DNA from: Octopus vulgaris
Lineage: Eukaryota
Direction: 5' to 3'
DNA: 64,000 nt
Assembly (NCBI GenBank): GCA_951406725.2
Contig: OX597827.1
Span: 79,298,001-79,362,000, forward strand
Shown: positions 145-63,272 of the stretch, one piece after another
How the letters are laid out: each line of letters begins with the position of its first letter
How positions within the stretch are numbered: position 1 is the stretch's first letter
Position numbers and translations under genes: made by a program
Notes under the pieces: generated by a model
What the model saw: the letters and a program-made list of their open reading frames with translations, nothing else
What the model was told of the DNA's origin: nothing
The model's database searches: none

Positions 145-3114
145 CTATGTTGGCTGTAGATAGGTATCTTGTATTTGTTGTCCCTTTAGTATTGTGGCTG
201 CAACTGGATTGTCATTGGTATATTCTGCAAAATATCAAATATACAAACACAAATTACATTTCAACATAACAACTCCAATATATAAAGATAGAAACATTGA
301 TCTTGTATTACACTAAGCATAACATTATATATTGTCCTACAGTAATAAAGGCAATTACATTTATAAGTTATGTTTTGATAAAAGTTACCTGGTTCTGCAG
401 GTATCTCATCATATGGTTTAGTCTTGCCATTACTCTTGCTAGCTTCTCTGTCCTTTTGGGATGTTAAGGTGTCACTGTTGTAAGACATGATGGAACTGGT
501 GCGACGTCCATGACTATAGATTGAATCACATCTCTGTGGATAGTAGAAAGTGGAATCCTGTATAAATACAAGTTTAGATCACTTCTAATAAAACAGTCTG
601 AGGGACTGAAGTTGAGTTTTTTGTAGTAATAACTGTACATAGATGAATAATGGATAAAATACTTCTACCTTCATAATAATAAGCAAAAAAACATCAATTA
701 TCCAAAATAATATTTACCTGAGGCACAGGTGGAAGTCTCCTTTGTGTTGTTGAGAATTTCCATTCATCTGGTGTCTGTTCCATCTCCAGAAAAAACTGAC
801 TTTTAGATTTTATTGTCTGAAGATTTCGGTTAAATATCTCTTCTGCATTTCTTGTTATTGCAACAGGATTGTTAGTCTGATACAGTAATTGTCTCATCTC
901 AGTCTGAGAGAGAAAGTTGGGATTCTCTGCTGTTGTGGGTGAGTTATTTGTGTGATTAATACATCTGAAAACACACAGTGTTATGGACACTACAATAGCC
1001 ACAGATAGTATTACAGCTGCTGCTACAATGATAATTATCCAAGTCATATTCAGGTCGTGACCAGATTGGAATGGCACAGCAGTCAACATTGGAGATGTAT
1101 CATTACTAACAAACAGTGTTAGTATGATAGCAGTTGTTGCTGATTGAACTGGAGTACCACCGTCTTTCACTATAAACTGCAGCTCATATGTTCCTGCATC
1201 ATTTTGGTAAACTGTGCGAGAGAAAGATAACACACCAGTGTGTGAGTTCACTGTAAACAGGTTTTTATCATTGGATCTCAGTATTCCATATGTGAGGAAA
1301 GCATTGTTTCCAGTGTCTTTGTCAGATGCTCTCAGAATTGTGATGTCCTTCTTACTGTGTGGATGGTAGTGGACATCGAGATTGTAAGGGTCATTATTAG
1401 GAAACGTAAAATACGGAGCATTATCATTTTTATCTAGAATCTCAATAACAATATTGGCAGTGTCATTGAGAGAAGGTGTTCCATTATCTTTCACTAAAAC
1501 CTTGAACTTATAGATGTCTTTCATTTCTCGATCTATTGATTGTGATGTAGAAATAAATCCATATTTGGTCAGTTGGAAAGGAATGTTATCATTGTTGTTA
1601 TCATTGATGATAGAATATGTAAGTTGGCCTCCATCTCCAAGATCAGGGTCTGTAGCATTGATGAAGCCAATAGGGAAGTCAACTTTCTGGTTTTCATAGG
1701 TGAGGAATTGGAATGTCTCTTTGGTAAAATGTGGTTCTACATCATTGACATCAGTTACTTTGACAGAGAAATATTTTTTACTTTCTAGTTGAGGTGACCC
1801 CATGTCATGACACACAACAGATACTTTATAGTGGTCCCTTATTTCTCTGTCAAGATGACCCTTAACAATCATTTTATATTCTTTAGAATCTATTTTGGCA
1901 AGTTTAAACTTATCATGTTTTAAATCACAGATAACCTCACCATTAGGTCCACTATCAGTGTCAGTGACCATAACATAAGCTATAAAACTATCTACTTCAC
2001 TGTCTTCTGGAACTGCTGCTGAGCTCTCTGATAAAGGAGATACAAAATCTATGTTTATCAATGGAGCAGTATTCCTATTATTAATCACATAAATGTGAAC
2101 TCTAGCTACTGTCTTTAGAGGAGGGTTGCCGCCATCCTGCGCTTCAATAAATAATTTATAAGATTGCCTTTTACTGAAATGAAAATTATCATGTAAAAAT
2201 AAATCTCCAGTTTTCTTATCTAAAACAAAATATTTCTGGATATTTTGAGATGTTTTATGGTTGAAATGATAAGAAATCTTTCCATTGTCTCCAGAATCTC
2301 GATCTGTGGCTTTTAAAGTAAGAATTGGTAAATGTCTTTGATGTGAATTATTTATAGAGATATTATAGAATTTCTGTGAAAATACAGGTGTGTTATCATT
2401 GACATCTGTCACAGATATGTGTACCTTGAGTGTAGCTGTTTTGGCAGGGTTTCCTCCATCTTTAGCTTCCAGTGTCAACATATATGAATATTTTAGTTCC
2501 CTGTCTAATTTATCTGCTAAAGTCAGTTCAGGTATAAAAATACCATCCTGTTTTGTGACTGAGAGAGAAAATGGTTCTCTTTTACTTTTTTTAATCATAT
2601 ATGTAATTTGAGAATTCTTTATTGAAATATCTTGATCAATGGCATTTAAAAGTGAGATTTTAGTCCCTTTAAATTGGCTTTCGAGAAATTCAATTTCAAC
2701 TTCATTCTGTGGAAACTCTGGAGAATGGTCATTGATGTCTTCTATTAATATTTTTATCCTTAGAATCTTCATAAACGTTTTTCCTTTCCTCACTGCCACC
2801 TTCACAGTTCTAGAACATTCCTTGTTGTATGTACACAGAGACTCAGCATCCAGTGTTTGAGTAGTGTATAGTTTTCCTGAGTTGGTGACATTAAATAAGT
2901 GAGAACCACTCTCGACTGTCCTTTGTAGTTGTGTAAATGTAATGAGAGTGTGTTGTTGATGCGTGAGAGGGTGTGATAAGTTGGAGTCAACAGCAATGTC
3001 TCCTATATAGGTGTGAGGTCTGTCTTCTTCCTTGACATGGTATGCAATATCTATGGACAGTACAAGGGTGATCAGTAAAGGTAGAAGACACAGTAGACCA
3101 ATATATTGTGTCAT
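145..3114 (-). CDS. Protocadherin g1 (signal peptide, 6 EC repeats, TM, cytoplasmic tail), ~873 aa; coding exons 3114-718, 533-389, 224-145
   Basis: Cadherin motifs (LDRE, DxNDN, DxD), Pcdh-type EC1 LDAESLCxxxxxC and a hydrophobic TM. Donor CAG|GTAAAT at 718/717, acceptor CAG|AGA at 534/533, donor CCAG|GTAACT at 389/388, acceptor TGCAG|AA at 225/224. The phases join in frame to EYTNDNPVAATILKGQQIQDTYLQPT*. Confidence 0.93.
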
Positions 3115-5141
3115 GTCTGGAATTCTTCATCACACTTTAGCAGGAGAGTTTTCTACAAAACACAACAGACATTGAAAGTCTAAATAAAATTCAATAAAAT
3201 AAACTAAAATAAAGCAGTCATTGTGTAGATGTTATTCATTGTACTTTGTTATATTCCCTGAAGCTAAACTTAAAACTTTAAACTAATAGTTTACAAACAT
3301 AACGTTATTGTTGCAGTTATACCATGCCTCCATCTAGCTGAGAACCAGACTTTGATATGTGATGTAAAGTGATGGTCTGAGCCAATGTAAGAACTTTTAT
3401 ATGGTCATTCTGTCTGTGGTAGTAAAAGGCAGCCCAACCTTTAAATCTGATTCTACAGTCTTACAAATAGATGAATAAACTTGATAAAGTAATCCTGAAT
3501 ATAATAAACCAGAAATGATGACAGAATGTTGACAGCTTGAATAATGCAGACTCTGACAAGGAAATATTAAAACCCTTTAAATTTACATCACAGAGAAAGA
3601 TTTTAGTCGTTGGAGATTAATGATATATACAATATGAAAACAACAGCAATTCTACTCTAAGCTGATGGTAGGTCTAATTCTACAATTAGACCTACCATCT
3701 AAGCTGATGGTAGGTCCTAATCAAAAGAGAAGTAAAATATATTGTGAAATTAATGAACAGTAGTCTCTCGAGATATTTAATTAATGAAGTTTAGGTTTGC
3801 AGAGCGAAAGATTAAGGACATGATAACCTAAATGTACTTTATTGTGTCTTGTTGGTTGGAATTCCTCTCTTTTGTTACCGTATTTCTGTTGGAATACATT
3901 GCTTTTGTTTCGATCAATTTCAAAACTACAGCAAAAATTTAGTAAAATAACTTTGTCAAAATGAATCTGGTGATTGGAACACAAATCAAGATGAAATTTG
4001 ATGGAAAGCTTTAATTTAAAGCACTTTAAGAAGGAAGTTAATATCATAAAACCTGGCACAATTGGAGGCAAGTTGGTATCAGAGAGGGTGAAAGACATTT
4101 GATAATAATATACCTGTTTCACAGAAATGTAGGATAAGTGTATCTAAGACACCTAATAACCTGGATAGAAGATGTCTTGTTGACTTATTTCACAAATAAC
4201 TGACAAAGAATAGATTATAAAATTATGTGGAAATACTTTACAAAAATGGGAATTATAAAATGGTGGAGTGATATGTTGATGGAAAAATATGTATAATTAT
4301 CTTCATGAAATATGCAGATATCTTTCTTATCAAATAAATTGTAATAAAAGTAATTTAATCCCTATTTACATATAACATTTAGATTTTATACATATAAGAT
4401 ATTTCTGTTATATTATATATAGTATTAACAACTGTAATAATGAAATGTTTGTTAATTTGTAGAGAAATGATATTATATCTGAATAATTCTCAATATTCAT
4501 CTTTTGTTGTCAGGATTAATATATTTTAACAACACATGACAATATAATTGCTTTATATATCACACTAAATATCTTAAATAACAAATCTACACGAAATAAT
4601 ATTGACCAACATCTTTACATAACTTGGCTTTGTAAATGAGCAATCGCATGTGTTGATCTAAATGGCCTCCAAATGTATTCAATGAGTTTCTTTGCCCAAG
4701 AAGTCGGGAAGACACTTAGCAAGAAATGTAGATGTAAATTGAAAGGAGGAAAATACATAATGATAATAATAATAATAATGATGGTGATGACGAGGATAAA
4801 TATTCTTGGTTTATTATATACAAAAAAATACACAATGGATATTCAGTAGGGCATATATATATATATGTAGATATATATCTATAAATATATGTATTTACAT
4901 ACACACACACACACACACATATATAAGGATATGAATGATCCGTTAGAGTTAATTAAAGCTAGAGAAAATTAGGATTTTATTAGGGATATATCGCGAGAAC
5001 AAAGATATGAACTATATCAACATACATTATCAACACCCAGTCTTGTTGGCTATCAATCAATGTTTTGTGATAGTTAAATGTTTATATATATATCTAATTT
5101 AGACTAGTTTAAACAAATAATGTGTACTATATATTGTAGCA

Positions 5142-5146
<5 letters not shown>

Positions 5147-5214: not shown

Positions 5215-5217
<3 letters not shown>

Positions 5218-5441: not shown

Positions 5442-5479
<38 letters not shown>

Positions 5480-5886
5480 CTGCATTGTTTAATCCTTTAC
5501 TGTAGTTGTGTGTGATGGATGATGTGTATCCTGCTGTAGTGTTCCACTCCAACTGCTGCTGCTGCTGCTGTAGTGGTATTATAGTGGTACTGCTGCTGTT
5601 GTAGTAGTGTTCCTGTGTTACTGCTGCTGCTGCTGCTGTTCCTGTGTAACTGCTGATATAATAGTGTGACAGTTGCTGTATGTAGTGGGAGGTGAGATGT
5701 TAGCCAGATGCTGGTGTGTGCTAGTTACAACTCTATGTCCTCCACACACACACACACACAATTGTGTGTATGATGAACAAAGAAAAAAGCTATCAGCCTC
5801 ACTTTCAATATTGAAAGAAATATAGAAAATCTCTCTCATCCAATAGGAAATTACTGCAATGTTGTCTGTGTTACACAAACACATCA
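5287..5886 (-). promoter_or_regulatory. g1 conserved cassette: CCAAT box (5840-5844), putative first exon ending at donor 5480/5479, (GA)n and conserved intronic block
   Basis: About 600 bp, near-identical in all 8 units. Perfect donor CAG|GTAAGT. No minus-strand ATG from 5817 down to the last 6 nt of the exon. Confidence 0.75.
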
Positions 5887-6695: not shown

Positions 6696-9600
6696 CTATG
6701 TTGGTTGTAGATAGGTATCTTGTATTTGTTGTCCCTTTAGTATTGTGGCTGCAACTGGATTGTCATTGGTATATTCTGCAAAATATCAAATATACAAACA
6801 CAAATTACATTTCAATATAATAACTCCAATATATAAAGATAGAAACATTGATCTTATATTACACTAAGCATAACATTATATATTGTCCTACAGTAATAAA
6901 GGCAATTACATTTATATGTTATGTTTCGGTAAAAGTTACCTGGTTCTGCAGGTATCTCATCATATGGTTTAGTCTTGCCATTACTCTTGCTAGCTTCTCT
7001 GTCCTTTTGGGATGTTAAGGTGTCACTGTTGTAAGACATGATGGAACTGGTGCGACGTTCTTGACTATGGATTGAATCACATCTCTGTTGATTATAGAAA
7101 AAGGAATCTGATATCAATACAAGTTTAGATCACTCCTAATAAAACATTTCTTATATAAAGTGTATTCTATTTCGATAATGAATATTGTGTTTTGCTATCA
7201 CTAGGACAACAAAGAACAATTAATTCAGAATGTCACAGAAAAGCCAGAAATTTTAACCAAAGGAACGAAACGTTTCATACACATGAGAATCTGAAATAGA
7301 TATTTGAAAGAAATATTTGAATGCACATCAATAATTGATTAAATACTTTTGTATTTATAATCAAAAGGATATCAGAGATGTAAAATAATATTTACCTGAG
7401 GCACAGGTGGAAGTCTCCTTTGTGTTGTTGAGAATTTCCACTCATCTGGTGTCTGTTCCATCTCCAGAAAAAACTGACTTTTAGATTTTATTGTCTGAAG
7501 ATTTCGGTTAAATATCTCTTCTGCATTTCTCGTTATTGCAACAGGATTGTTGGTTTGATACAGTAATTGTCTCATCTCAGTCTGAGAGAGAAAGTTGGGA
7601 TTCTCTGCTGTTGTGGGTGAGTTATTTGTGTGATTAATACATCTGAAAACACACAGTGTTATGGACACTACAATAGCCACAGATAGTATTACAGCTGCTG
7701 CTACAATGATAATTACCCAAGTCATATTCAGGTCGTGACCAGACTGGAATGGCACAGCAGTCAACATTGGAGATGTATCATTACTAACAAACAGTGTTAG
7801 TATGATAGCAGTTGTTGCTGATTGAACTGGAGTACCACCGTCTTTCACTATAAACTGCAGCTCATATGTTCCTGCATCATTTTGGTAAACTGTGCGAGAG
7901 AAAGATAACACACCAGTGTGTGAGTTCACTGTAAACAGGTTTTTATCATTGGATCTCAGTATTCCATATGTGAGGAAAGCATTGTTTCCAGTGTCTTTGT
8001 CAGATGCTTTCAGAATTGTGATGTCCTTCTTACTGTGTGGATGGTAGTGGACATCGAGATTGTAAGGGTCATTATTAGGAAACGTAAAATACGGAGCATT
8101 GTCATTTTTATCCAGAATCTCAATAACAATATTGGCAGTGTCATTGAGAGAAGGTGTTCCATTATCTTTCACTAAAACCTGGAACTTATAGATGTCTTTC
8201 ATTTCTCGATCTATTGATTGTGATGTAGAAATGAATCCATATTTTGTCAGTTGGAAAGGAATGTTATCATTGTTGTTATCATTGATGATAGAATATGTAA
8301 GTTGGCCTCCATCTCCAAGATCAGGGTCTGTAGCATTGATGAAGCCAATAGGGAAGTCAACTTTCTGGTTTTCATAGGTGAGGAATTGGAAAGTCTCTTT
8401 GGTAAAATGTGGTTCTACATCATTGACATCAGTTACTTTGACAGAGAAATATTTTTTACTTTCTAGTTGAGGTGACCCCATGTCATGACACACAATAGAT
8501 ACTTTATAGTGGTCCCTTATTTCTCTGTCAAGATGACCTTTAATAACCATTTTATACTCTTTAGAATCTATTTTAGCAAGGTTAAACTTATCATGTTTTA
8601 AATCACAGATAACCTCACCGTTAGGTCCACTATCATTGTCAGTGACCATAACATAAGCTATAAAACTATCTACTTCACTGTCTTCTGAAACTGTTGCTGA
8701 GCTCTCTGATAAAGGAGATACAAAATCTATATTAATCATGGGTACATTATTTCTGTTGTTAATTATTTGAATCTGAACTGCTGCAACAGACTTTTTTGGT
8801 GGCTTACCTCCATCCATTGCTTCAATAAATAATTTATAAGATTGTTTTTTACTAAATTGAAAATTATCATGTAAAAATAAATCTCCAGTTTTCTTATCTA
8901 AAACAAAATATTTCTGGACATTTCGAGACGTTTTATGGTTGAAATGGTAAGAAATTTTCCCATTATCCTCAGAATCTTGATCTGTGGCTTTTAAAGTAAG
9001 AATTGGTAAGTGTCTTTGATGTGAATTGCTTACAGAAATGTTGTAGAGTTTCTGTGAAAATACAGGTGTATTATCATTGACATCTGTCACAGTTATGTGT
9101 ACCTTGAGTGTAGCTGTTTTGGGAGGATTCCCTCCATCTTTAGCTTCCAAGATCAACATATATGAATCTTTTACTTCCCTGTCTAATCTATCTTCTAGAA
9201 TGAGTTTAGGTATAAAAATACCATCATGTTTTGTGACAGAAAGTGAAAATGGTTCTCTTTTACTTTTCTTAATCATATATGTAATTTGAGAATTTTTGAC
9301 TGAAATATCCTGATCAATGGCATTTAGAAGGGAGACCATTTCCCCTTTTCTCTCTTTCTCAGAAAATTCAATCTCAACTTCATTCTGTGGAAATTCTGGA
9401 GAATGGTCATTGATGTCTTCTATTAATATTTTAATTTTTAGAATCTTCATAAAAGTTTTTCCTTTCCTCACTGCTACTTTAACTGTTCTGGAACATTCCT
9501 TGTTGTATGTACACAGAGACTCAGCATCCAGTGTTTGAGTAGTGTATAGTTTTCCTGAGTTGGTGACGTTAAATAAGTGAGAACCACTATCGACTGTCCT

Positions 9601-9792
9601 TTGTAGTTGTGTAAATGTAACGAGAGTGTGTTGTTGATGTGTGAGAGGGTGTGATAAGTTAGAGTCAACAGCAACGTCTCCTATATAGGTGTGAGGTCTG
9701 TCTTCTTCATTGACGTGGTATGTAATATCTGTGGACAGTGCAAGGGTGATCAGTAAATGTAGAAGACACAGTAGACCAATATATGCTGTCAT
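6696..9792 (-). CDS. Protocadherin g2, ~873 aa; coding exons 9792-7396, 7084-6940, 6775-6696
   Basis: Same domain motifs and splice sites as g1; large exon coding part 2397 bp. Confidence 0.93.
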
Positions 9793-11737: not shown

Positions 11738-12143
11738 CTGCATTGTTTAATCCTTCACTGTAGTTGTGTGTGATGGATGATGTGTATCCTGCTGTAGTGT
11801 TCCACTCTAACTGCTGCTGCTGCTGCTGTAGTGGTATTATAGTGGTACTGCTGCTGTTGTAGTAGTGTTCCTGTGTTACTGCTGCTGCTGCTGCTGTTCC
11901 TGTGTAACTGCTGATATAATAGTGTGACAGTTGCTGTATGTAGTGGGAGGTGAGATGTTAGCCAGATGCTGGTGTGTGCTAGTTACAACTCTATGTCCTC
12001 ACACACACACACACACAATTGTGTGTATGATGAACAAAGAAAAAAGCTATCAGCCTCACTTTCAATATTGAAAGAAATATAGAAAATCTCTCTCATCCAA
12101 TAGGAAATTACTGCAATGTTGTCTGTGTCACACAAACACATCA
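11543..12143 (-). promoter_or_regulatory. g2 conserved promoter/first-exon cassette (CCAAT 12097-12101; donor 11738/11737)
   Basis: Near-identical to the g1 cassette. Confidence 0.75.
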
Positions 12144-12985: not shown

Positions 12986-15900
12986 CTATGTTGGCTGTAG
13001 ATAGGTATCTTGTATTTGTTGTCCCTTTAGTATTGTGGCTGCAACTGGATTGTCATTGGTATATTCTGCAAAATATCAAATATACAAACACAAATTACAT
13101 TCCAATATAACAACTCCAATATATAAAGATAGAAACACTGATCTTATATTACACTAAGCATAACATTATATATTGTCCTACAGTAATAAAGGCAATTACA
13201 TTTATATGTTATGTTTTGATAAAATTACCTGGTTCTGCAGGTATCTCATCATATGGTTTAGTCTTGCCATTACTCTTGCTAGCTTCTCTGTCCTTTTGGG
13301 ATGTTAAGGTGTCACTGTTGTAAGACATGATGGAACTGGTGCGACGTCCTTGACTATGGATTGAATCACATCTCTGTTGATTACAGAAAAATGAATGTTA
13401 TATCAATACAAGTTCAGATGACTCCTAATAAAACAGTTCTCATATAAAGCATATTCTATTTAGATAATGAATATTGTATTTTGCTATCACAAGGACACCA
13501 AAGAACAATTAATTCAGAATGCCACAGAAAAGCCAGAAATTTTAACCAAAGGAACGAAACGTTTCATACACATGAGAATCTGAAATAGATATTTGAAAGA
13601 AATATTTGAATGCACATCAATAATTGATTAAATACTTTTGTATTTATAATCGAAAGGATATTTACCTGAGGCACAGGTGGAAGTCTCCTTTGTGTTGTTG
13701 AGAATTTCCACTCATCTGGTGTCTGTTCCATCTCCAGAAAAAACTGACTTTTAGATTTTATCGTCTGAAGATTTCGGTTAAATATCTCTTCTGCATTTCT
13801 CGTTATTGCAACAGGATTGTTAGTTTGATACAGTAATTGTCTCATCTCAGTCTGAGAGAGAAAGTTGGGATTCTCTGCTGTTGTGGGTGAGTTATTTGTG
13901 TGATTAATACATCTGAAAACACACAGTGTTATGGACACTACAATAGCCACAGATAGTATTACAGCTGCTGCTACAATGATAATTACCCAAGTCATATTCA
14001 GGTCGTGACCAGACTGGAATGGCACAGCAGTCAACATTGGAGATGTATCATTACTAACAAACAGTGTTAGTATGATAGCAGTTGTTGCTGATTGAACTGG
14101 AGTACCACCGTCTTTCACTATAAACTGCAGCTCATATGTTCCTGCATCATTTTGGTAAACTGTGCGAGAGAAAGATAACACGCCAGTGTGTGAGTTCACT
14201 GTAAACAGGTTTTTATCATTGGATCTCAGTATTCCATATGTGAGGAAAGCATTGTTTCCAGTGTCTTTGTCAGATGCTCTCAGAATTGTGATGTCCTTCT
14301 TACTGTGTGGATGGTAGTGGACATCGAGATTGTAAGGGTCATTATTAGGAAACGTAAAATACGGAGCATTATCATTTTTATCTAGAATCTCAATAACAAT
14401 ATTGGCAGTGTCATTGAGAGAAGGTGTTCCATTATCTTTCACTAAAACCTGGAACTTATAGATGTCTTTCATTTCTCGATCTATTGATTGTGATGTAGAA
14501 ATAAATCCATATTTTGTCAGTTGGAAAGGAATGTTATCATTGTTGTTATCATTGATGATAGAATATGTAAGTTGGCCTCCATCTCCAAGATCAGGGTCTG
14601 TAGCATTGATGAAGCCAATAGGGAAGTCAACTTTCTGGTTTTCATAGGTGAGGAATTGGAATGTCTCTTTGGTAAAATGTGGTTCTACATCATTGACATC
14701 AGTTACTTTGACAGAGAAATATTTTTTACTTTCTAGTTGAGGTGACCCCATGTCATGACACACAATAGATACTTTATAGTGGTCCCTTATTTCTCTGTCA
14801 AGATGGCCCTTAACAATCATTTTATATTCTTTAGAATCAATTTTGGCAAGTTTAAACTTATCATGTTTTAAATCACAGATAACCTCACCATTAGGTCCAC
14901 TATCAGTGTCAGTGACCATAACATAAGCTATAAAACTACCAATTTTACTTGCTTCTGAAACTGCTGCTGAGCTCTCTGATAAAGGAGATACAAAATCTAT
15001 ATTAATCATGGGTACATTATTTCTGTTATTAATTATTTGAATCTGAACTGCTGCAACAGACTTTTTTGGTGGCTTACCTCCATCCATTGCTTCAATAAAT
15101 AATTTATAAGATTGCATCTTAGTAAACTGAAAATTATCATGTAAAAATAAATCTCCAGTGTTCTTATTTAATACAAAATATTTCTGGATATTTCGAGATG
15201 TTTTATGGTTGAAATGGTAAGAAATCTTTCCATTGTCTCCAGAATCTTGATCTGTGGCTTTTAAAGTAAGAATTGGTAAATGTCTTTGATGTGAATTATT
15301 GATAGAAATGTTGTACATTTCCTGTGAAAATACAGGTATGTTATCATTAGCATCTGTCACAGTTATGTGTACCTTGAGTGTAGCTGTTTTGGGAGGATTC
15401 CCTCCATCTTTAGCTTCCAAGATCAACATATATGAATCTTTTACTTCCCTGTCTAATCTGTCTTCTAGAATTAGCTCAGGTATAAAAATACCCTTTTGTT
15501 TTGTGACAGAAAGTGAAAATGGTTCTCTTTTACTTTTCTTAATCATATATGTAATTTGGGAATTTTTTATCGAAATATCCTGATCAATGGCATTTAGAAG
15601 GGAGACCATTTCCCCTTTTCTGTCTCTCTCAGAAAATACAATCTCAGCTTCATTCTGTGGAAATTCTGGAGAATGGTCATTGATGTCTTCTATTAATATT
15701 TTTATCCTTAAAATTTTCATAAATGTTTCTTCTTTCCTCACTGCTACTTTAACAATTCTGAAACATTCTTTGTTGTATGTACACAGAGACTCAGCATCCA
15801 GTGTTTGAGTAGTGTAGAGTTTTCCTGAGTTGGTGACATTAAATAAGTGAGAACCACTCTCGACTGTCCTTTGTAGTTGTGTAAATGTAATGAGAGTGTG

Positions 15901-16062
15901 TTGTTGATGTGTGAGAGGGTGTGATAAGTTGGAGTCAACAGCAATGTCTCCTATATAGGTGTGAGGCCTGTCTTCTTCCTTGACATGGTATGTAATATCT
16001 ATGGACAGTACAAGGGTGATCAGTAAATGTAGAAGACACAGTAGACCAATATATGCTGTCAT
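12986..16062 (-). CDS. Protocadherin g3, ~873 aa; coding exons 16062-13666, 13373-13229, 13065-12986
   Basis: Same motifs and splice sites; exon-3 donor variant GTAATT. Confidence 0.93.
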
Positions 16063-19566: not shown

Positions 19567-19970
19567 CTGCATTGTTTAATCCTTTACTGTAGTTGTGTGT
19601 GATGGATGATGTGTATCCTGCTGTAGTGTTCCACTCCAACTGCTGCTGCTGCTGCTGTAGTGGTATTATAGTGGTACTGCTGCTGTTGTAGTAGTGTTCC
19701 TGTGTTACTGCTGCTGCTGCTGCTGTTCCTGTGTAACTGCTGATATAATAGTGTGACAGTTGCTGTATGTAGTGGGAGGTGAGATGTTAGCCAGATGCTG
19801 GTGTGTGCTAGTTACAACTCTATGTCCTCCACACACACACACACAATTGTGTGTATGATGAACAAAGAAAAAAGCTATCAGCCTCACTTTCAATATTGAA
19901 AGAAATATAGAAAATCTCTCTCATCCAATAGGAAATTACTGCAATGATGTCTGTGTCACACAAACACATC
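19378..19970 (-). promoter_or_regulatory. g3 conserved promoter/first-exon cassette (CCAAT 19925-19929; donor 19567/19566)
   Basis: Near-identical to the g1 cassette. Confidence 0.75.
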
Positions 19971-23700: not shown

Positions 23701-23897
23701 GTCCTTTGTAGTTGTGTAAATGTAATGAGAGTGTGTTGTTGATGTGTGAGAGGGTGTGATAAGTTGGAGTCAACAGCAATGTCTCCTATATAGGTGTGAG
23801 GTCTGTCTTCTTCCTTGACATGGTATGTAATATCTATGGACAGTACAAGGGTGATCAGTAAATGTAGAAGACACAGTAGACCAATATATGCTGTCAT
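20776..23897 (-). CDS. Protocadherin g4, ~873 aa; coding exons 23897-21501, 21164-21020, 20855-20776
   Basis: Same motifs and splice sites. Confidence 0.93.
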
Positions 23898-28199: not shown

Positions 28200-28799
28200 G
28201 TTAATGGTGGAAGTCATGGCTAGATCTCTCGATCCTCCACTGTCCCAGTCCCTGTATATATACAACATGGCAGACATTTTAGATATTATCCTTACCCTGT
28301 CTTTCATTAGAAACACAAATAATATAAATGTTATAATGAATATGAAAAGATAATAAAGAGAGAGAGAGAGAGAGAGGGAGACTTACCTGCATTGTTTAAT
28401 CCTTCACTGTAGTTGTGTGTGATGGATGATGTGTATCCTGCTGTAGTGTTCCACTCCAACTGCTGCTGCTGCTGCTGTAGTGGTATTATAGTGGTACTGC
28501 TGCTGTTGTAGTAGTGTTCCTGTGTTACTGCTGCTGCTGCTGATGTTCCTGTGTAACTGCTGATATAATAGTGTGACAGTTGCTGTATGTAGTGGGAGGT
28601 GAGATGTTAGCCAGATGCTGGTGTGTGCTAGTTACAACTCTATGTCCTCCACACACACACACACACACACACAATTGTGTGTATGATGAACAAAGAAAAA
28701 AGCTATCAGCCTCACTTTCAATATTGAAAGAAATATAGAAAATCTCTCTCATCCAATAGGAAATTACTGCAATGTTGTCTGTGTCACACAAACACATCA
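28200..28799 (-). promoter_or_regulatory. g4 conserved promoter/first-exon cassette (CCAAT 28753-28757; donor 28387/28386)
   Basis: Near-identical to the g1 cassette. Confidence 0.75.
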
Positions 28800-36457: not shown

Positions 36458-37043
36458 GTTAATGGTGGAAGTGATGGCTAGATCTCTCGATCCTCCACTG
36501 TCCCAGTCCCTGTATATATACAACATGGCAGACATTTTAGATATTATCCTTACCCTGTCTTTCACTAGAAACACAAATAATATAAATGTTATAATGAATA
36601 TGAAAAGATAATAAAGAGAGAGAGAGAGAGAGAGACTTACCTGCATTGTTTAATCCTTCACTGTAGTTGTGTGTGATGGATGATGTGTATCCTGCTGTAG
36701 TGTTCCACTCCAACTGCTGCTGCTGCTGCTGTAGTGGTATTATAGTGGTACTGCTGCTGTTGTAGTAGTGTTCCCGTGTTACTGCAGCTGCTGCTGCTGT
36801 TCCTGTGTAACTGCTGATATAATAGTGTGACAGTTGCTGTATGTAGTGGGAGGTGAGATGTTAGCCAGATGCTGGTGTGTGCTAGTTACAACTCTATGTC
36901 CTCCACACACACACACAATTGTGTGTATGATGAACAAAGAAAAAAGCTATCAGCCTCACTTTCAATATTGAAAGAAATATAGAAAATCTCTTTCATCCAA
37001 TAGGAAATTATTGCAATGTTGTCTGTGTCACACAAACACATCA
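36458..37043 (-). promoter_or_regulatory. g5 conserved promoter/first-exon cassette (CCAAT 36997-37001; donor 36641/36640)
   Basis: Near-identical to the g1 cassette. Confidence 0.75.
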
Positions 37044-40700: not shown

Positions 40701-40952
40701 AGTGTATAGTTTTCCTGAGTTGGTGACATTAAATAAATGAGAACCACTCTCGACTGTCCTTTGTAGTTGTGTAAATGTAATGAGAGTGTGTTGTTGATGT
40801 GTGAGAGGGTGTGATAAGTTAGAGTCAACAGCAATGTCTCCTATATAGGTGTGAGGTCTGCCTTCTTCCTTGACATGGTATGTAATATCTATGGACAGTA
40901 CAAGGGTGATCAGTAAATGTAGAAGACACAGTAGACCAATATATGCTGTCAT
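37773..40952 (-). CDS. Protocadherin g6, ~874 aa; coding exons 40952-38553, 38163-38019, 37852-37773
   Basis: Same motifs and splice sites; large exon coding part 2400 bp. Confidence 0.93.
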
Positions 40953-44232: not shown

Positions 44233-44821
44233 GTTAATGGTGGAAGTGATGGCTAGATCTCTCGATCCTCCACTGTCCCAGTCCCTGTATATACAACATG
44301 GCAGACATTTTAGATATTATCCTTACCCTGTCTTTCATTAGAAACACAAATAATATAAATGTTATAATGAATATGAAAAGATAATAAAGAGAAGAAAGGG
44401 TGAAAGAGAGAGACTTACCTGCATTGTTTAATCCTTCACTGTAGTTGTGTGTGATGGGTGATGTGTATCCTGCTGTAGTGTTCCACTCTAACTGCTGCTG
44501 CTACTGCTGTAGTGGTATTATAGTGGTACTGCTGCTGTTGTAGTAGTGTTCCTGTGTTACTGCTCCTGCTGCTGCTGTTCCTGTGTAACTGCTGATATAA
44601 TAGTGTGACAGTTGCTGTATGTAGTGGGAGGTGAGATGTTAGCCAGATGCTGGTGTGTGCTAGTTACAACTCTATGTCCTCCACACACACACACAATTGT
44701 GTGTATGATGAACAAAGAAAAAAGCTATCAGCCTCACTTTCAATATTGAAAGAAATATAAAAAATCTCTCTCATCCAATAGGAAATTACTGCAATGATGT
44801 CTGTGTCACACAAACACATCA
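44233..44821 (-). promoter_or_regulatory. g6 conserved promoter/first-exon cassette (CCAAT 44775-44779; donor 44419/44418)
   Basis: Near-identical to the g1 cassette; the (GA)n tract is interrupted. Confidence 0.75.
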
Positions 44822-45745: not shown

Positions 45746-48677
45746 CTATGTTGGCTGTAGATAGGTATCTTGTATTTGTTGTCCCTTTAGTATTGTGGCT
45801 GCAACTGGATTGTCATTGGTATATTCTGCAAAATATCAAATATACAAACACAAATTACATTTCAATATAACAACTCCAATATATAAAGATAGAAACATTG
45901 ATCTTGTATTACACTAAGCATAACATTATATATTGTCCTACAGTAATAAAGGCAATTATATTTATATGTTATGTTTTGATAAAAGTTACCTGGTTCTGCA
46001 GGTATCTCATCATATGGTTTAGTCTTGCCATTACTCTTGCTAGCTTCTCTGTCCTTTTGGGATGTTAAGGTGTCACTGTTGTAAGACATGATGGAACTGG
46101 TGCGACGTCCTTGACTATGGATTGAATCACATCTCTGTTGATTAGAAAACAGAGCAGAGTGAATAATGTTAAATACAAGACATGTTAACATTTGTATTCT
46201 AAAATGTTCCTGATAAAAGACAAGAAAGGCATGCTTTTAAAATGTGTAGAAATATTATGAAATTTCTTCAACTATATTTACCTGAGGCACAGGTGGAAGT
46301 CTCCTTTGTGTTGTTGAGAATTTCCACTCATCTGGTGTCTGTTCCATCTCCAGAAAAAACTGACTTTTAGATTTTATTGTCTGAAGATTTCGGTTAAATA
46401 TCTCTTCTGCATTTCTCGTTATTGCAACAGGATTGTTAGTCTGATACAGTAATTGTCTCATCTCAGTCTGAGAGAGAAAGTTGGGATTTTCTGCTGTTGT
46501 GGGTGAGTTATTTGTGTGATTAATACATCTGAAAACACACAGTGTTATGGACACTACAATAGCCACAGATAGTATTACAGCTGCTGCTACAATGATAATT
46601 ACCCAAGTCATATTCAGGTCGTGACCAGACTGGAATGGCACAGCAGTCAACATTGGAGATGTATCATTACTAACAAACAGTGTTAGTATGATAGCAGTTG
46701 TTGCTGATTGAACTGGAGTACCACCGTCTTTCACTATAAACTGCAGCTCATATGTTCCTGCATCATTTTGGTAAACTGTGCGAGAGAAAGATAACACACC
46801 AGTGTGTGAGTTCACTGTAAACAGGTTTTTATCATTGGATCTCAGTATTCCATATGTGAGGAAAGCATTGTTTCCAGTGTCTTTGTCAGATGCTCTCAGA
46901 ATTGTGATGTCCTTCTTACTGTGTGGATGGTAGTGGACATCGAGATTGTAAGGGTCATTATTAGGAAACGTAAAATACGGAGCATTATCATTTTTATCTA
47001 GAATCTCAATAACAATATTGGCAGTGTCATTGAGAGAAGGTGTTCCATTATCTTTCACTAAAACCTGGAACTTATAGATGTCTTTCATTTCTCGATCTAT
47101 TGGTTGTGATGTAGAAATAAATCCATATTTTGTCAGTTGGAAAGGAATGTTATCATTGTTGTTATCATTGATGATAGAATATGTAAGTTGGCCTCCATCT
47201 CCAAGATCAGGGTCTGTAGCATTGATGAAGCCAATAGGGAAGTCAACTTTCTGGTTTTCATAGGTGAGGAATTGGAATGTCTCTTTGGTAAAATGTGGCT
47301 CTACATCATTGACATCAGTTACTTTGACAGAGAAATATTTTTACTTTCTAGTTGAGGTGACCCCATGTCATGACACACAATAGATACTTTATAGTGGTCC
47401 CTTATTTCTCTGTCAAGATGGCCCTTAACAATCATTTTATATTCTTTAGAATCTATTTTGGCAAGTTTAAATTTATCATGTTTTAAATCACAGATAACCT
47501 CACCATTAGGTCCACTATCAGTGTCAGTGACCATAACATAAGCTATAAAACTATCTACTTCACTGTCTTCTGAAACTGCTGCTGAGCTCTCTGATAAAGG
47601 AGATACAAAATCTATATTTATCAATGGAGCATTATTCTGGTTATTGACTATGTGAATCTGAACTGCTGCAACAGATTTTTTGGGTGGCTTTCCTCCATCT
47701 CTTGCTTCAATAAATAACTTATAAGACTCCTTTTTACTAAAATGAAAGTTGGCATGTAAAAATAAATCTCCAGTTTTCTTATCTAATACAAAATATTTCT
47801 GGATATTTCGAGATGTTTTATGGTTGAAATGATACAAAATCCTTCCATTGTCTCCAGAATCTTTATCTGTGGCCTTTAAAGTAAAAATTGGTAAATGTCT
47901 TTGATGTGAATTACTTACAGAGGTGTTGTACAGGTCGTGTGAAAATACAGGTGTGTTATCATTGACATCAGTTACAGATATGTGTACCTTCAGTGTAGCT
48001 GTTTTGGGAGGGTTCCCTCCATCTTTAGCTTCCAAGGTTAACATGTATGAGACTTTCACTTCCCTGTCTAACTTATCTTCAAGAATTATTTCAGGTGTGA
48101 AAATACCTTTGTGCTTTGTGACAGAGAGAGAAAATGGTTCTCTTTTATTTTTCTTGATCATATATGTAATTTGGGAATTTTTTACTGAAATATCTTCATC
48201 AATAGCATTCAGAAGAGATATTTTATCGCCTTTTCTATCTCTTTCAGAAAATTCAATTTCAACTTCATTCTGTGGAAATTCTGGGGAATGATCATTGATG
48301 TCATCTATTAATATTTTAATTCTTAATATTTTCAAAAATGTTTTCCCTTTCCTCACTGCTACTTTAACAATTCTGGAACATTCCCTGTTGTATGTACACA
48401 GAGACTCAGCATCCAGTGTCTGAGTAGTGTATAGTTTTCCTGAGTTGGTGACATTAAATAAGTGAGAACCACTCTCGACTGTCCTTTGTAGTTGCGTAAA
48501 TGTAATGAGAGTGTGTTGTTGATGTGTGAGAGGGTGTGATAAGTTGGAGTCAACAGCAATGTCTCCAATATAGGTGTGAGGTCTGTCTTCTTCCTTGACA
48601 TGGTATGTAATATCTATGGACAGTACAAGGGTGATCAGTAAATGTAGAAGACACAGTAGACCAATATATGCTGTCAT
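45746..48677 (-). CDS. Protocadherin g7, frameshifted as assembled (1-bp deletion, T6 to T5 at 47338-47342); exons 48677-46282, 46134-45990, 45825-45746
   Basis: Full-length homolog, 2396 bp instead of 2397; no other disablement seen. Pseudogene or sequencing error. Confidence 0.8.
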
Positions 48678-53708: not shown

Positions 53709-54282
53709 GTTAATGGTGGAAGTGATGGCTAGATCTCTCGATCCTCCACTGTCCCAGTCCCTGTATATATACAACATGGCAGACATTTTAGATATTATCC
53801 TTACCCTGTCTTTCATTAGAAATACAAATAATATAAATGTTATAATGAATATGAAAAGATAATAAAGAGAAAGAGAGAGAGAGAGACTTACCTGCATTGT
53901 TTAATCCTTCACTGTAGTTGTGTGTGATGGATGATGTGTATCCTGCTGTAGTGCTCCACTCCAACTGCTGCTGCTGTAGTGGTATTATAGTGGTACTGCT
54001 GCTGTTGTAGTAGTGTTCCTGTGTTACTGCTGCTGCTGTTCCTGTGTAACTGCTGATATAATAGTGTGACAGTTGCTGTATGTAGTGGGAGGTGAGATGT
54101 TAGCCAGATGCTGGTGTGTGCTAGTTACAACTCTATGTCCTCCACACACACACACAATTGTGTGTATGATGAACAAAGAAAAAAGCTATCAGCCTCACTT
54201 TCAATATTGAAAGAAATATAGAAAATCTCTCTCATCCAATAGGAAATTACTGCAATGTGGTCTGTGTCACACAAACACATCA
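53709..54282 (-). promoter_or_regulatory. g7 conserved promoter/first-exon cassette (CCAAT 54236-54240; donor 53892/53891)
   Basis: Near-identical to the g1 cassette, with shorter CTG tracts. Confidence 0.75.
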
Positions 54283-54925: not shown

Positions 54926-57889
54926 CTATGTTGGCTGTAGATAGGTATCTTGTATTTGTTGTCCCCTTAGTATTGTGGCTGCAACTGGATTGTCATTGGT
55001 ATATTCTGCAAAATATCAAATATACAAACACAAATTACATTTCAATATAACAACTCCAATACATAAAGATAGAAACACTGATCTTATATTACACTAAGCA
55101 TAACATTATATATTGTCCTACAGTAATAAAGGCAATTACATTTATATGTTATGTTTTGATAAAAGTTACCTGGTTCTGCAGGTATCTCATCGTATGGTTT
55201 AGTCTTGCCATTACTCTTGCTAGCTTCTCTGTCCTTTTGGGATGTTAAGGTGTCACTGTTGTAAGACATGATGGAACTGGTACGACGATCTTGACTATGG
55301 ATTGAATCGCATCTCTGTTGATTAGAAAACAGAGCTGAGTGAATGCTAAATAGAAGTCTGAAACATTAATATTTGTATTCTAAAGAAGAGTGAATATGAT
55401 TGACTGATAAAATGAAATAAAATATAAAGGCATGCTTTTAAAATGTGATCACAAATATCTAACAAGAAAATTATTTTAAAATATATTTACCTGAGGCACA
55501 GGTGGAAGTCTCCTCTGTGTTGTTGAGAATTTCCACTCATCTGGTGTCTGTTCCATCTCCAGAAAAAACTGACTTTTAGATTTTATTGTCTGAAGATTTC
55601 GGTTAAATATCTCTTCTGCATTTCTCGTTATTGCAACAGGATTGTTAGTCTGATACAGTAATTGTCTCATCTCAGTCTGAGAGAGAAAGTTGGGATTCTC
55701 TGCTGTTGTGGGTGAGTTATTTGTGTGATTAATACATCTGAAAACACACAGTGTTATGGACACTACAATAGCCACAGATAGTATTACAGCTGCTGCTACA
55801 ATGATAATTACCCAAGTCATATTCAGGTCGTGACCAGACTGGAATGGCACAGCAGTCAACATTGGAGATGTATCATTACTAACAAACAGTGTTAGTATGA
55901 TAGCAGTTGTTGCTGATTGAACTGGAGTACCACCGTCTTTCACTATAAACTGCAGCTCATATGTTCCTGCATCATTTTGGTAAACTGTGCGAGAGAAAGA
56001 TAACACACCAGTGTGTGAGTTCACTGTAAACAGGTTTTTATCATTGGATCTCAGTATTCCATATGTGAGGAAAGCATTGTTTCCAGTGTCTTTGTCAGAT
56101 GCTCTCAGAATTGTGATGTCCTTCTTACTGTGTGGATGGTAGTGGACATCGAGATTGTAAGGTCATTATTAGGAAACGTAAAATACGGAGCATTATCATT
56201 TTTATCTAGAATCTCAATAACAATATTGGCAGTGTCATTGAGAGAAGGTGTTCCATTATCTTTCACTAAAACCTTGAACTTATAGATGTCTTTCATTTCT
56301 CGATCTATTGGTTGTGATGTAGAAATAAATCCATATTTTGTCAGTTGGAAAGGAATGTTATCATTGTTGTTATCATTGATGATAGAATATGTAAGTTGGC
56401 CTCCATCTCCAAGATCAGGGTCTGTAGCATTGATGAAGCCAATAGGGAAGTCAACTTTCTGGTTTTCATAGGTGAGGAATTGGAATGTCTCTTTGGTAAA
56501 ATGTGGTTCTACATCATTGACATCAGTTACTTTGACAGAGAAATATTTTTTACTTTCTAGTTGAGGTGACCCCATGTCATGACACACAATAGATACTTTA
56601 TAGTGGTCCCTTATTTCTCTGTCAAGATGGCCCTTAACAATCATTTTATATTCTTTAGAATCTATTTTGGCAAGTTTAAATTTATCATGTTTTAAATCAC
56701 AGATAACCTCACCATTAGGTCCACTATCAGTGTCAGTGACCATAACATAAGCTATAAAACTATCTACTTCACTGTCTTCTGAAACTGCTGCTGAGCTCTC
56801 TGATAAAGGAGATACAAAATCTATATTTATCAATGGAGCAGTATTCTGGTTATTAATAATGTGAATCTGGACTTTGGTTACAGAACTTAAGGGTGGATTT
56901 CCTTCATCCTGTGCTTCAATAAATAATTTATAAGATTGCTTTTTACTAAAATGAAAATTATCATGTAAAAATAGATCTCCAGTTTTCTTATCTAATACAA
57001 AATATTTCTGGATATTTCGAGATGTTTTATGGTTGAAATGGTAAGAAATCTTTCCATTGTGTCCAGAATCTTGATCTGTGGCTTTTAAAGTAAGAATTGG
57101 TAAATGTCTTTGATGTGAATTACTTATAGAGATGTTGTAGAGTTTCTGTGAAAATACAGGTGTGTTATCATTGACATCTGTCACAGATATGTGTACCTTG
57201 AGTGTAGCTGTTTTGGGAGGGTTCCCTCCATCTTTAGCTTCCAGTGTCAACATGTAAGAGTCTTTGAGTTCCCTGTCTAATTTGTCTCCTAACACTAGAG
57301 CTGGTATGAAAACACCATCATATCGCTTTTCAACTGAGAGAGAAAATGGTTCTCTTTTACTTTTCTTAATCATATATGTAATTTGAGAATTCTGTATTGA
57401 AATATCTTGATCAATGGCATTTAAAAGTGAGATTTTAGTACCTTGAAGGTGACTCTCAAGAAATTCAATTTGAACTTCATTCTTTGGGAATTCTGGTGAG
57501 TGGTCATTGATGTCTTCTATTAATATTTTTATCCTTAGAATCTTCATAAAAGTTTTTCCTTTCCTCACTGCTACTTTAACAATTCTGGAACATTCCTTGT
57601 TGTATGTACACAGAGACTCAGCATCCAGTGTTTGAGTAGTGTATAGTTTTCCTGAGTTGGTGACATTAAATAAGTGAGAACCACTCTCGACTGTCCTTTG
57701 TAGTTGTGTAAATGTAATGAGAGTGTGTTGTTGATGTGTGAGAGGGTGTGATAAGTTGGAGTCAACAGCAATGTCTCCTATATAGGTGTGAGGTCTGCCT
57801 TCTTCCTTGACATGGTATGTAATATCTATGGACAGTACAAGGGTGATCAGTAAATGTAGAAGACACAGTAGACCAATATATGCTGTCAT
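54926..57889 (-). CDS. Protocadherin g8, frameshifted as assembled (GGG to GG at 56161-56162); exons 57889-55491, 55314-55170, 55005-54926
   Basis: Full-length homolog, 2399 bp instead of 2400; no other disablement seen. Confidence 0.8.
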
Positions 57890-61382: not shown

Positions 61383-61537
61383 GTTAATGGTGGAAGTGAT
61401 GGCTAGATCTCTCGGTCCTCCACTGTCCCAGTCCCTGTATATATACAACATGGCAGACATTTTAGATATTATCCTTACCCTGTCTTTCATTAGAAACACA
61501 AATAATATAAATGTTATAATGAATATGAAAAGATAAT

Positions 61538-61579
<42 letters not shown>

Positions 61580-61981
61580 CTGCATTGTTTAATCCTTCAC
61601 TGTAGTTGTGTGTGATGGATGATGTGTATCCTGCTGTAGTGTTCCACTCTAACTGCTGCTGCTGCTGTAGTGGTATTATAGTGGTACTGCTGCTGTTGTA
61701 GTAGTGTTCCTGTGTTACTGCTGCTGCTGCTGATGTTCCTGTGTAACTGCTGATATAATAGTGTGACAGTTGCTGTATGTAGTGGGAGGTGAGATGTTAG
61801 CCAGATGCTGGTGTGTGCTAGTTACAACTCTATGTCCTCCACACACACACACACAATTGTGTGTATGATGAACAAAGAAAAAAGCTATCAGCCTCACTTT
61901 CAATATTGAAAGAAATATAGAAAATCTCTCTCATCCAATAGGAAATTACTGCAATGATGTCTGTGTCACACAAACACATCA
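61383..61981 (-). promoter_or_regulatory. g8 conserved promoter/first-exon cassette (CCAAT 61935-61939; donor 61580/61579)
   Basis: Near-identical to the g1 cassette. Confidence 0.75.
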
Positions 61982-62883
61982 AATAAGAGAAGTCATGTTA
62001 AACAGAAGCAAACTTCACTTTTTCTATTTAATAAAAACACTACATTACATATCTAATGTTAGGAAATAAGAGATTTGTATTAAGATATGAGATTTATAAT
62101 ATTTCTTGATATTTAATGAGTTATTATTAACTTCACTATAAGAATACATATTCAGGATTTCTATCAGAAACAAATTGATTTCAGACTAAGTCACCAAAGA
62201 TTTCATTTTTTAAGAAGTTTACATGATTAGAGGAACTGTAAAGAAAGTGAATCAAGAGGAATTACAATATTTTCAAATTAAAAAATTAAAACAAGTTTTT
62301 TTCTTATAATTTCTACATTATACTTAATAAAATATAGAACTTTCGGAATTTCTAAGTTGGTAGTTTTAATATGTTACTAATATACATGACTACTTTATTG
62401 GAATTTGTGTGAATCAACACTTATCTATGTATAATGATATCAATTAGTAAAATTTAAAATAAACTGAATATAAAAAGAAAAAAACAGATGGGAACAAAAG
62501 ACAAAATGTCAATAAAGTAAATCAATGGTAGAATCTAGTATGATACTAATTGATGGTAGATTTGGTATCGAACTAAAAGATACTATACCTACAATTTCTA
62601 GGATAAATCAGATTATTTTATGTTTAATAAAATGAGTACACTAAAACTGAGAGTAAAATAACTATTTTATAAGAACATAGTATGTTAATATAAAGTAGGG
62701 TGTTTTGTAATATTTAATTTACCTCAGATGGAAATTAGGAGGTCATAATAGATGCCACTGTAAGGCCCTTTATGTGTGTGATGGGTGAAAGAAACATAGA
62801 GTTGATATTTTTATATGAATATAAAGTATTGTATAAGATTTGGTGTGTGAGAGAATCATTTAACAATAGTCATGGGACATCTA

Positions 62884-63272
62884 CTATGTTGGCTGTAGAT
62901 AGGTATCTTGTATTTGTTGTCCCTTTAGTATTGTGGCTGCAACTGGATTGTCATTGGTATATTCTGCAAAATATCAAATATACAAACACAAATTACATTT
63001 CAATATAACAACGCCAATACATAAACATAGAAACATTGATCTTATATTACACTAAGCATAACATTATGTATTGTCCTACAGCAATAAAGGCAATTACATT
63101 TATATGTTATGTTTTGATAAAAGTTACCTGGTTCTGCAGGTATCTCATCATATGGTTTAGTCTTGCCGTTACTCTTGCTAGCTTCTCTGTCCTTTTGGGA
63201 TGTTAAGGTGTCACTGTTGTAAGACATAATGGAACTGGTGCGACGTTCTTGACTATGGATTGAATCACATCT
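62884..63272 (-). CDS. 3' exons of a ninth protocadherin (63272-63128, 62963-62884); large exon lies beyond the window end
   Basis: Same exon 3 and exon 4 sequence and splice sites; the window ends in ...ataatatt, the sequence that precedes the exon-2 donor in other units. Confidence 0.88.

Follow-up and report, generated by a model that had tools for sequence, protein, structure and literature searches.

How can a tandem array of complete genes keep most of every copy nearly identical, even at synonymous sites, while one segment of the same exon differs strongly from copy to copy? The question is raised by a protocadherin locus in the genome of Octopus vulgaris (2.8 Gb). The DNA analysed, here termed the window, is a stretch of 64,000 nucleotides at C14:79,298,001-79,362,000, where C14 denotes contig OX597827.1 of assembly GCA_951406725.2. 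Positions 145..63272 of the window carry eight protocadherin genes plus the tail exons of one more, each of them on the minus strand and part of a cluster of 25 full genes and one partial gene, here termed array A. An earlier account of the window (the sequence-only reading) had proposed a variable/constant architecture of vertebrate type, achieved by concerted evolution instead of shared exons. The present comparison makes it probable that array A consists of complete genes homogenised by gene conversion, each carrying a selected and reshuffled segment, from late in the first to early in the fourth extracellular cadherin domain (EC1 to EC4), that would serve self-binding.

Every full gene in the stretch read has its own 5' block and tail exons, arranged as 5' block with GT donor, intron (1.5-8.7 kb), large exon, intron (147-1489 nt), 145-nt exon (142 nt in one copy), 164-nt intron and last exon. 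The large exon measures 2391-2403 nt (about 2.4 kb) in the 25 genes and encodes the signal peptide, EC1-EC6, the transmembrane segment (TM) and the first cytoplasmic part; ectodomain and TM thus share one exon, as is characteristic of protocadherins. In the reference protein (Table 1) Pfam places Cadherin_2 at 23-108, followed by five Cadherin stretches, and a structure model places the TM helix at 690-721. The best structure matches of this model are protocadherins; the closest solved ones are vertebrate and about 30% identical, the nearest of them being non-clustered. Among named sequences, protocadherins of Octopus and Argonauta come nearest (top matches 79-93% identical). As head-to-tail complete multi-exon genes with octopod relatives, the copies form a clustered sub-array of the coleoid kind. 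The tail exon has 26 copies genome-wide, all within C14:79.188-79.396 Mb. Private, near-identical tail exons follow all 25 full genes, as the sequence-only reading had held, and this arrangement of one tail copy per large exon departs from the shared constant exons of the vertebrate alpha/gamma type, with splicing to a neighbour's tail left possible by the contigs. Among four contig runs whose RNA-type label is a guess, the last splice, between the tail exons, is present in all four, the splice from the large exon to the next exon in three, and the junction of 5' exon and large exon in at least two among the matches listed; both tail splices of the reference gene itself are represented in such contigs.

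Homogenised and diverged parts of the genes

Synonymous divergence (dS), calculated in 30-codon windows, is strongly non-uniform along the 23 core genes of array A. Values of 0.25-0.67 prevail over the greater part of codons 91-375, apart from a drop to 0.13-0.18 at codons 241-300, and outside this range none exceeds 0.11; the sliding profile of the eight window genes is the same. Domain by domain, among the 16 intact core genes, the variable part is formed by EC1 101-131 (0.530), EC2 (0.460) and EC3 (0.351). It is flanked on the N-terminal side by the signal peptide (0.013) and EC1 22-100 (0.047), and on the C-terminal side by EC4 (0.086), EC5 (0.043), EC6 (0.035), TM (0.015) and the cytoplasmic part of the large exon (0.049). 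The contrast drawn by the sequence-only reading, between a signal peptide, most of EC1, most of EC4-EC6, TM and cytoplasmic part that are near-identical at synonymous sites (dS 0.013-0.086) and a diverged stretch from late EC1 to early EC4 (0.35-0.53 in late EC1-EC3), is therefore borne out, and the uniform dS that would have contradicted it is not seen. The variable segment is almost without indels, EC5-EC6 differ by 0.6-1.6% within array A, and the whole-gene Jukes-Cantor (JC) distance is 0.053.

The non-coding parts are similarly partitioned. A 5' block before every gene, absent from the earlier account, is homogenised, with a mean proportion of differing sites (p-distance) of 0.010 (99% identical within array A). 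In the intron of the 5' untranslated region (UTR) the p-distance is 0.018 over the first 150 nt and 0.23-0.58 beyond the first 150-250 nt, reaching 0.58 in the far part; it is 0.365 (from 20 of the 23 genes) in the intron that follows the large exon and 0.17-0.42 in the intergenic spacer. The 164-nt intron between the tail exons is homogenised, with a mean of 0.019. The claim that introns 1 and 2 are diverged is thus correct if the 5' UTR intron is counted as the first, and does not extend to the intron between the tail exons. A single ATTGG (reverse CCAAT) and a single CATCTG occur in each of the 24 5' blocks checked, and the UTR contains CAG-rich repeats. We take CATCTG to be an E-box, presumably a site for neural bHLH factors. 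A site two mismatches away from a CTCF consensus is found in 24 of 24 upstream stretches, a count that comes without a chance estimate and from inside a homogenised block. CGCT, the promoter box of vertebrates, is not conserved, occurring in 4 of the 24 upstream stretches.

Proteins named for Argonauta hians and for O. sinensis repeat the variable/constant profile; O. vulgaris-named proteins were not counted as independent of the window. Within the Argonauta A-type set, differences per residue amount to 0.32 in EC2 and 0.28 in EC3 against 0.005-0.03 in EC5-TM. Between array A (16 proteins) and the Argonauta A-type proteins (up to 19), 57 residue differences are fixed, located in EC1 22-100 and from 351 on, with none in 101-350, and at 43 positions within 101-375 both genera are polymorphic. 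The TM segments of the two genera are 20% different. Thus, given this divergence and the 57 fixed differences, the constant part is not frozen by constraint and changes in concert.

Sub-array B, the neighbour of A, exists in both genera, and between the Argonauta sub-arrays A and B the difference is 53-55% in EC2 and EC3 and falls to 1-3% in EC5-TM. Trees of 62 proteins conflict reciprocally. In EC2-3 the proteins separate by sub-array (support 100), and separation by genus is rejected (p 0.0005, approximately unbiased (AU) test), whereas in EC5-TM they separate by genus (support 100), and separation by sub-array is rejected (p-AU 0.003); the A and B labels were given by eye from the alignment, so that the AU values do not come from blind-named groups, and the EC5-TM range was picked after the result of the EC4-EC6 tree was known. 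The 62 rows were drawn from 70, the others being four without EC2-3 cover, one long branch and three copies of one divergent gene. In EC2-3 the two edge genes of array A, C14:79391014 and 79377845, are joined by two of the 17 Argonauta A-type proteins. Both edge genes carry signal peptides of a different kind and resemble old positional orthologs with a converted EC5-tail part. A divergent gene at C14:79433745, with one-to-one relatives in three Octopus-named sets, has an EC5 almost equal to that of array A and its own EC1-3, TM and tail.

Sub-arrays B, C and D were covered over 200 kb each, by large-exon frames of at least 740 codons (12, 21 and 18 genes, respectively). In sub-array D, whose identity to A across EC4-EC6 is only about 63%, both boundaries of A recur, with dS of 0.05 in EC1 22-100, 0.58-0.70 in EC2-3 and 0.02-0.08 from EC4 onward. 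Sub-array C has the EC4 boundary only, being variable through EC1-EC3 and flat from EC4 (EC5 dS 0.000). Both C and D have their own homogenised blocks resembling 5' exons (95-98% identical). GC content at third codon positions (GC3) is 0.32-0.38 in EC5-6 against 0.21-0.27 in EC2-3 and is higher in the homogenised parts of all four sub-arrays. Taken together, the dS profile, the homogenised intron, the genus-specific fixed residues and the reciprocal tree conflict support concerted evolution, and the constant parts are very probably kept alike by gene conversion. Domain-restricted conversion sparing EC2-EC3, as in the vertebrate self-recognition code, is thus found in array A, and the same domains are spared from homogenisation in two lineages with separate expansions of the family. 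Of the proposal made for the window, concerted evolution with private tails stands, and the contrast with shared exons was overstated, since vertebrates use both devices.

Two local features of the other sub-arrays are recorded here. In sub-array C, six adjacent genes at C14:80011729-80054332 are almost identical even in EC1 and represent either a very recent expansion or assembly redundancy. In sub-array B, whole units of about 11-14 kb at C14:79.52-79.57 Mb match at 1-5% difference including introns, with zero-difference stretches, as expected of a recent duplication or a second haplotype.

A mosaic segment and the coupling of EC1 with EC4

The variable segment is finely mosaic. Among its site pairs 85% are four-gamete incompatible, falling to 63% for neighbouring pairs, a value as low as which was seen in 0 of 2000 permutations, and r2 among its sites has fallen to the background for 23 genes, about 0.05, by a separation of about 60 nt. 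Core genes differ pairwise at no fewer than 23 (mean 47) of its 275 residues, and O. sinensis-named proteins lie 4-37 residues from the nearest own gene, often unevenly along the segment. The window genes at 9792 and 16062 (Table 1) are separated by just 30 residue differences in 101-375. From these patterns we infer that short conversion tracts also act inside the variable part, with something preventing the loss of alternative patches. The segment, although diverged, is thus not exempt from conversion and is itself shuffled in short pieces.

Across this mosaic one long-range association is retained. Residue 112 of EC1 and residues 371-375 of EC4 adopt two matched states in array A, lysine with DSEVD or glutamate/glutamine with ASKIG, in 24 of the 25 genes. 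The match of K112 with E373 (p 3e-6 in the array's own 25 genes) recurs in 10 of 11 O. sinensis-named proteins and in all 16 scorable of 20 Argonauta A-type proteins. Sub-array B pairs K112 with D371 in 12 of 12 genes, and neither coupled state is present in 15 scorable Argonauta B proteins. The coupled sites are 780 nt apart, and yet the 12 focal EC1-EC4 site pairs have r2 of 0.54-0.84 against a mean of 0.043 and a maximum of 0.34 for the other 324 pairs from the same two regions; under block permutation the null reached 0.84 in 6 of 1000 cases. Two candidate couplings between EC2 and EC3, of 192 with 334-338 and of 140 with 337-338, lay within the null and were dropped.

In the structure model the last two strands of EC1 are connected by a turn at residues 111-112, and residues 370-375 make up the loop ahead of the second EC4 strand. 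From cadherin topology we take residue 112 to lie at the tip of EC1 and residues 371-375 at the far end of EC4, too distant to touch within one rod and presumably adjacent in an antiparallel dimer. A coupling of this kind is what an antiparallel self-binding dimer would predict, and the array A pattern suggests such a dimer. The match is kept within each gene, which is expected if the protein binds its own copy and unexpected if other isoforms were bound. Self-binding of the isoforms through an antiparallel EC1-EC4 face is indirectly supported by this coupling and would resemble the vertebrate case: in vertebrate dimers the EC1 beta6-beta7 loop is described as contacting the loop after EC4 beta1a (PMC5001838), and the accessible text on gamma-Pcdhs reports charge-swapped EC1:EC4 specificity, with opposite charges across EC1:EC4 separating subfamilies (PMC5106212). 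On the residue pattern we regard this mode of binding as likely for array A.

Explanations for the variable segment and its use

In the joint reading favoured here, conversion seeded in long near-identical blocks would keep the promoter, the secretion signal, most of EC1 and the part from mid-EC4 to the last exon uniform, and unequal crossing-over may add to it. Selection for distinct self-binding faces would keep late EC1 to early EC4 diverse and would remove mismatched EC1/EC4 combinations, a step based on the coupling and on the repeated boundaries. Short tracts within the variable part would deal old patches into new combinations; the coupled patches would touch across the dimer, giving two charge classes within which EC2-EC3 would separate isoforms. 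Identical EC5-EC6 and tails would allow cis pairing of all isoforms and like signalling, and near-identical 5' blocks would make the array genes regulatory equals. In vertebrates the barcode model is described as having two requirements, specific trans and promiscuous cis binding (PMC8901172), with which the pattern in array A is compatible. By analogy with the vertebrate case we infer use in a neuronal self-recognition code, and a stochastic barcode in octopus neurons is possible, a suggestion held tentatively. A still broader proposal is that octopods independently rebuilt the whole vertebrate logic, with conversion-held arrays, recombined lock-and-key patches and near-identical promoters picked randomly per neuron, and that the published recent burst of expansion is in part a homogenisation artefact of old arrays; this we consider doubtful.

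The strongest alternative concerns use. Isoforms may be specific self-binders deployed deterministically by cell type or region, in wiring, fasciculation or adhesion strength, with no stochastic barcode; this departs from the joint reading solely in how isoforms are deployed, and we give it substantial weight, though well short of even. Octopus protocadherin expression is reported to amount to about 21 members per neuron, with ubiquitous ones beside others that mark cell types, and the passages available from that study give no evidence of stochastic choice (PMC9712504). The scarcity of the CGCT box points the same way, as do the non-clustered type of the closest solved protocadherin and the prediction that non-clustered delta-protocadherins use the same EC1-4 dimer (PMC5001838). 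On the other side stand the 5' blocks, 99% identical in A and 95-98% within C and D, which leave little proximal sequence for gene-specific patterns; the diverged 5' introns and spacers could still supply them.

Other observations weigh, like the expression data, against the joint reading. The coupling has its exceptions: the charge match fails in the array A gene with ATG at C14:79216992 and in one O. sinensis-named protein; in sub-array D the same EC1 loop pairs instead with EC4 residue 366 (18 of 18), at a level reached in 83 of 1000 block permutations and with no charge swap; and in sub-array C EC4 is almost invariant. No EC2-EC3 coupling exceeds the null (best r2 about 0.6, the null maximum being 0.56 on average). 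The EC4 loop 371-375 falls a few residues past the loop as it is named in PMC5001838, and by a reading of the motifs the vertebrate salt-bridge residues lie on the next strand. The homogenisation is likewise imperfectly regular. A tree of EC4 376 to EC6 shows no grouping by genus across sub-arrays and still groups by sub-array, because EC4 keeps the A/B difference, and the test was therefore run on EC5-TM; in sub-array B the pattern is weak, with dS of 0.14 (0.137) in EC5, 0.10 in EC6, 0.15-0.94 in the rest past the signal peptide and 0.517 in the tail. Even EC2-3 places the remaining 15 of the 17 Argonauta A-type proteins in a clade by themselves, so that the variable part also turns over. 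Finally, dN/dS in the variable part is about 0.25-0.28, and introns diverge as well, so that escape from conversion needs no selection.

These last points lead to an alternative in which conversion is real and the variable island is a neutral leftover: a diverged stretch recombines less and stays diverged like the introns, the proteins are near-redundant and the array provides mainly dosage. The divergence of two introns and the spacer without protein constraint, the dN/dS well below 1, the frameshifts in 7 of 25 genes and the turnover of the island between genera agree with it. However, the same boundaries recur in Argonauta and in sub-array D despite its distance from A, the island is nearly indel-free and itself recombining, and neutral escape gives no reason to expect a single long-range coupling that persists in two genera. 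This explanation is therefore improbable, and the joint reading with selection on the segment is retained.

Recent whole-gene duplications followed by fast change of EC2-EC3, without conversion, would account for the small whole-gene distance; recent whole-unit duplicates do occur in sub-arrays B and C, and a burst at 8-14 Ma has been published (PMC9795677). Protein-level selection is nevertheless unable to lift dS tenfold, the flanking introns are nearly unalignable (p-distance up to 0.58), sub-array identity in EC2-3 predates the Octopus-Argonauta split while EC5-TM is genus-specific, and constant-part divergence is independent of distance along the array (Spearman 0.00; 0.12, p 0.056, for the variable part), all of which makes this course of events very unlikely. 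That assembly collapse or polishing produced the identity is hardly credible, for although nine single-base indels in seven genes, mostly at short base runs, suggest consensus errors in the region, the 23 core genes have 23 distinct constant-region sequences (longest identical run among window genes 686 nt), proteins of Argonauta and those named O. sinensis have the same divergence profile, and a mismatch-free 250-nt EC4 stretch is held by contigs of four of four public DNA-type runs from four studies at depths of 113-1187 against 5-68 in flanking contigs, tens of times higher, a rough guide in which one run may be the source of the window itself.

Array A predates the Octopus-Argonauta split and its whole-gene distance is nonetheless 0.053, so that dates taken from whole-gene distances would run young; such distances understate the age of these arrays. 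Similarly, reads from the constant part are unassignable to single array genes. A self-recognition code of cephalopod protocadherins has been assumed since the expansion was discovered, and the accessible text of the cited cephalopod papers makes no functional claim. Array A offers indirect evidence for self-binding, and the octopus neuron barcode becomes testable residue by residue, with two charge classes and one mismatched gene as natural controls.

Features of the window and comparison with known systems

The genes and blocks of the window are listed in Table 1. Eighteen of the 25 array A genes are intact; the nine indels of the other seven, most of them in or beside short base runs, include those of two of the eight window genes, which the sequence-only reading had missed. 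At three of the frameshift positions the closest O. sinensis-named proteins keep the reading frame, as would be expected of errors or of recent loss. Among 12 matches listed of 13, no DNA-type contig over 45500-58200 covers either window frameshift. The one-base deletion near 47342 recurs in the same A run of the gene at C14:79236295, reflecting either a consensus error made twice or the spread of a frameshift through conversion. Very high-copy interspersed repeats (contig depth in millions), including a 247-nt tandem pair, occupy 49740-50587 and 51012-51859 in the 5' intron of the gene at 48677. Array A ends on one side in a partial gene with internal deletions (C14:79396459-79397775) and on the other in a short gene fragment (C14:79187231-79187422).

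Table 1. Protocadherin genes and associated features, in window coordinates
Positions	Strand	Feature	Residue 112 and EC4 loop
145..3114	-	Gene, intact; large exon 3114-718, exon 533-389, last coding exon 224-145	K112, DSEVD
5480..5865	-	Homogenised 5' block of gene at 3114 (5' UTR exon with GT donor end, likely with proximal promoter)	
6696..9792	-	Reference gene, intact, 873 aa; large exon 9792-7396, exon 7084-6940, last coding exon 6775-6696	K112, DSEVD
8668..9492	-	Variable segment of reference gene, codons 101-375, late EC1 to early EC4	
9457..9462	-	Codons 111-112 of reference gene, turn of last EC1 hairpin in model	GK; EE/GE/GQ in other copies
8668..8682	-	Codons 371-375 of reference gene, EC4 loop coupled to residue 112	DSEVD; ASKIG in other copies
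6776..6939	-	164-nt intron between tail exons of reference gene; homogenised, p-distance 0.019	
7085..7395	-	Intron after large exon of reference gene; length and sequence diverged among copies	
11738..12122	-	Homogenised 5' block of gene at 9792; exon end joined to acceptor at 9829 in 2 of 4 RNA-type runs	
12986..16062	-	Gene, intact	E112, ASKIG
19567..19950	-	Homogenised 5' block of gene at 16062	
20776..23897	-	Gene, intact	Q112, ASKIG
28387..28778	-	Homogenised 5' block of gene at 23897	
29973..33076	-	Gene, intact	E112, ASKIG
36641..37022	-	Homogenised 5' block of gene at 33076	
37773..40952	-	Gene, intact	E112, ASKIG
44419..44800	-	Homogenised 5' block of gene at 40952	
45746..48677	-	Gene; one-base deletion in A run, EC4, near 47342 (pseudogene or consensus error)	K112, DSEVD
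53892..54261	-	Homogenised 5' block of gene at 48677	
54926..57889	-	Gene; one-base deletion in C run, EC6 start, near 56160 (pseudogene or consensus error)	K112, DSEVD
61580..61960	-	Homogenised 5' block of gene at 57889	
62884..63272	-	Tail exons 63272-63128 and 62963-62884 of next gene; its large exon just outside the window	

Regional conversion sparing EC2-EC3 is established in vertebrate clusters (PMC1852091, PMC4978886). In the passages available, 3' parts of variable exons in fugu Pcdh arrays are more than 99% identical and GC3 is raised in the converted parts (PMC1852091), and a dS comparison of Xenopus, mouse and zebrafish Pcdh has been published (PMC4978886). The teleost case (fugu Pcdh2 alpha/gamma) resembles array A in its tandem paralogs, homogenised 3' ectodomains with an EC4 or EC5 boundary, highest dS in EC2-EC3, raised GC3 and a separate consensus for each sub-cluster. 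In contrast, the genes of array A are complete, and homogenisation extends to their private tail exons, to an intron and to the 5' block, as well as to most of EC1 in A and D; the octopod expansion is independent of the vertebrate one, as these expansions are called in PMC9068888 and PMC4978886.

The mammalian alpha, gamma and beta clusters share with array A the six EC domains and TM in one large exon (PMC7811963, PMC8901172, PMC5001838) and, as described there, diversity in EC2-EC3 and in the EC1/EC4 contact loops with uniform EC5-EC6 and tail. Unlike mammalian alpha/gamma, array A is without shared constant exons and a conserved CGCT box, has an upstream non-coding exon and is about 30% identical. 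Mammalian Pcdh-beta, reported to be without constant exons (PMC7811963), consists of complete genes that are single-exon, whereas those of array A are multi-exon. Binding and stochastic expression of the mammalian clusters have been measured in mouse, while array A is known from sequence.

Published cephalopod clusters are, like array A, chromosome-scale and organised in one-orientation multi-exon sub-arrays, with full-gene duplication and no alternative first exons, as far as the available text goes (PMC9068888, PMC6339937, PMC9795677). Two of these accounts describe full-gene duplication without shared exons and mention "homogenization through gene conversion" in one sentence each (PMC9068888, PMC6339937); the third dates expansions to 65 and 8-14 Ma from whole-gene distances, and the word "conversion" occurs 0 times in its main text (PMC9795677). 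No domain-level study of cephalopod protocadherins was found among the openly accessible papers searched, and the supplementary notes of PMC9068888, Wang and Ragsdale 2017, the 2015 genome paper (Albertin 2015) and subscription papers, which lay outside the search, may hold one. Thus domain-restricted conversion is known from vertebrate protocadherins and conversion has been suggested for cephalopods; to the cephalopod clusters as described in the accessible text, array A adds a domain-level map, the cross-genus tree conflict, promoter homogenisation and the EC1-EC4 coupling, of which the EC1-EC4 match within a fine mosaic is new.

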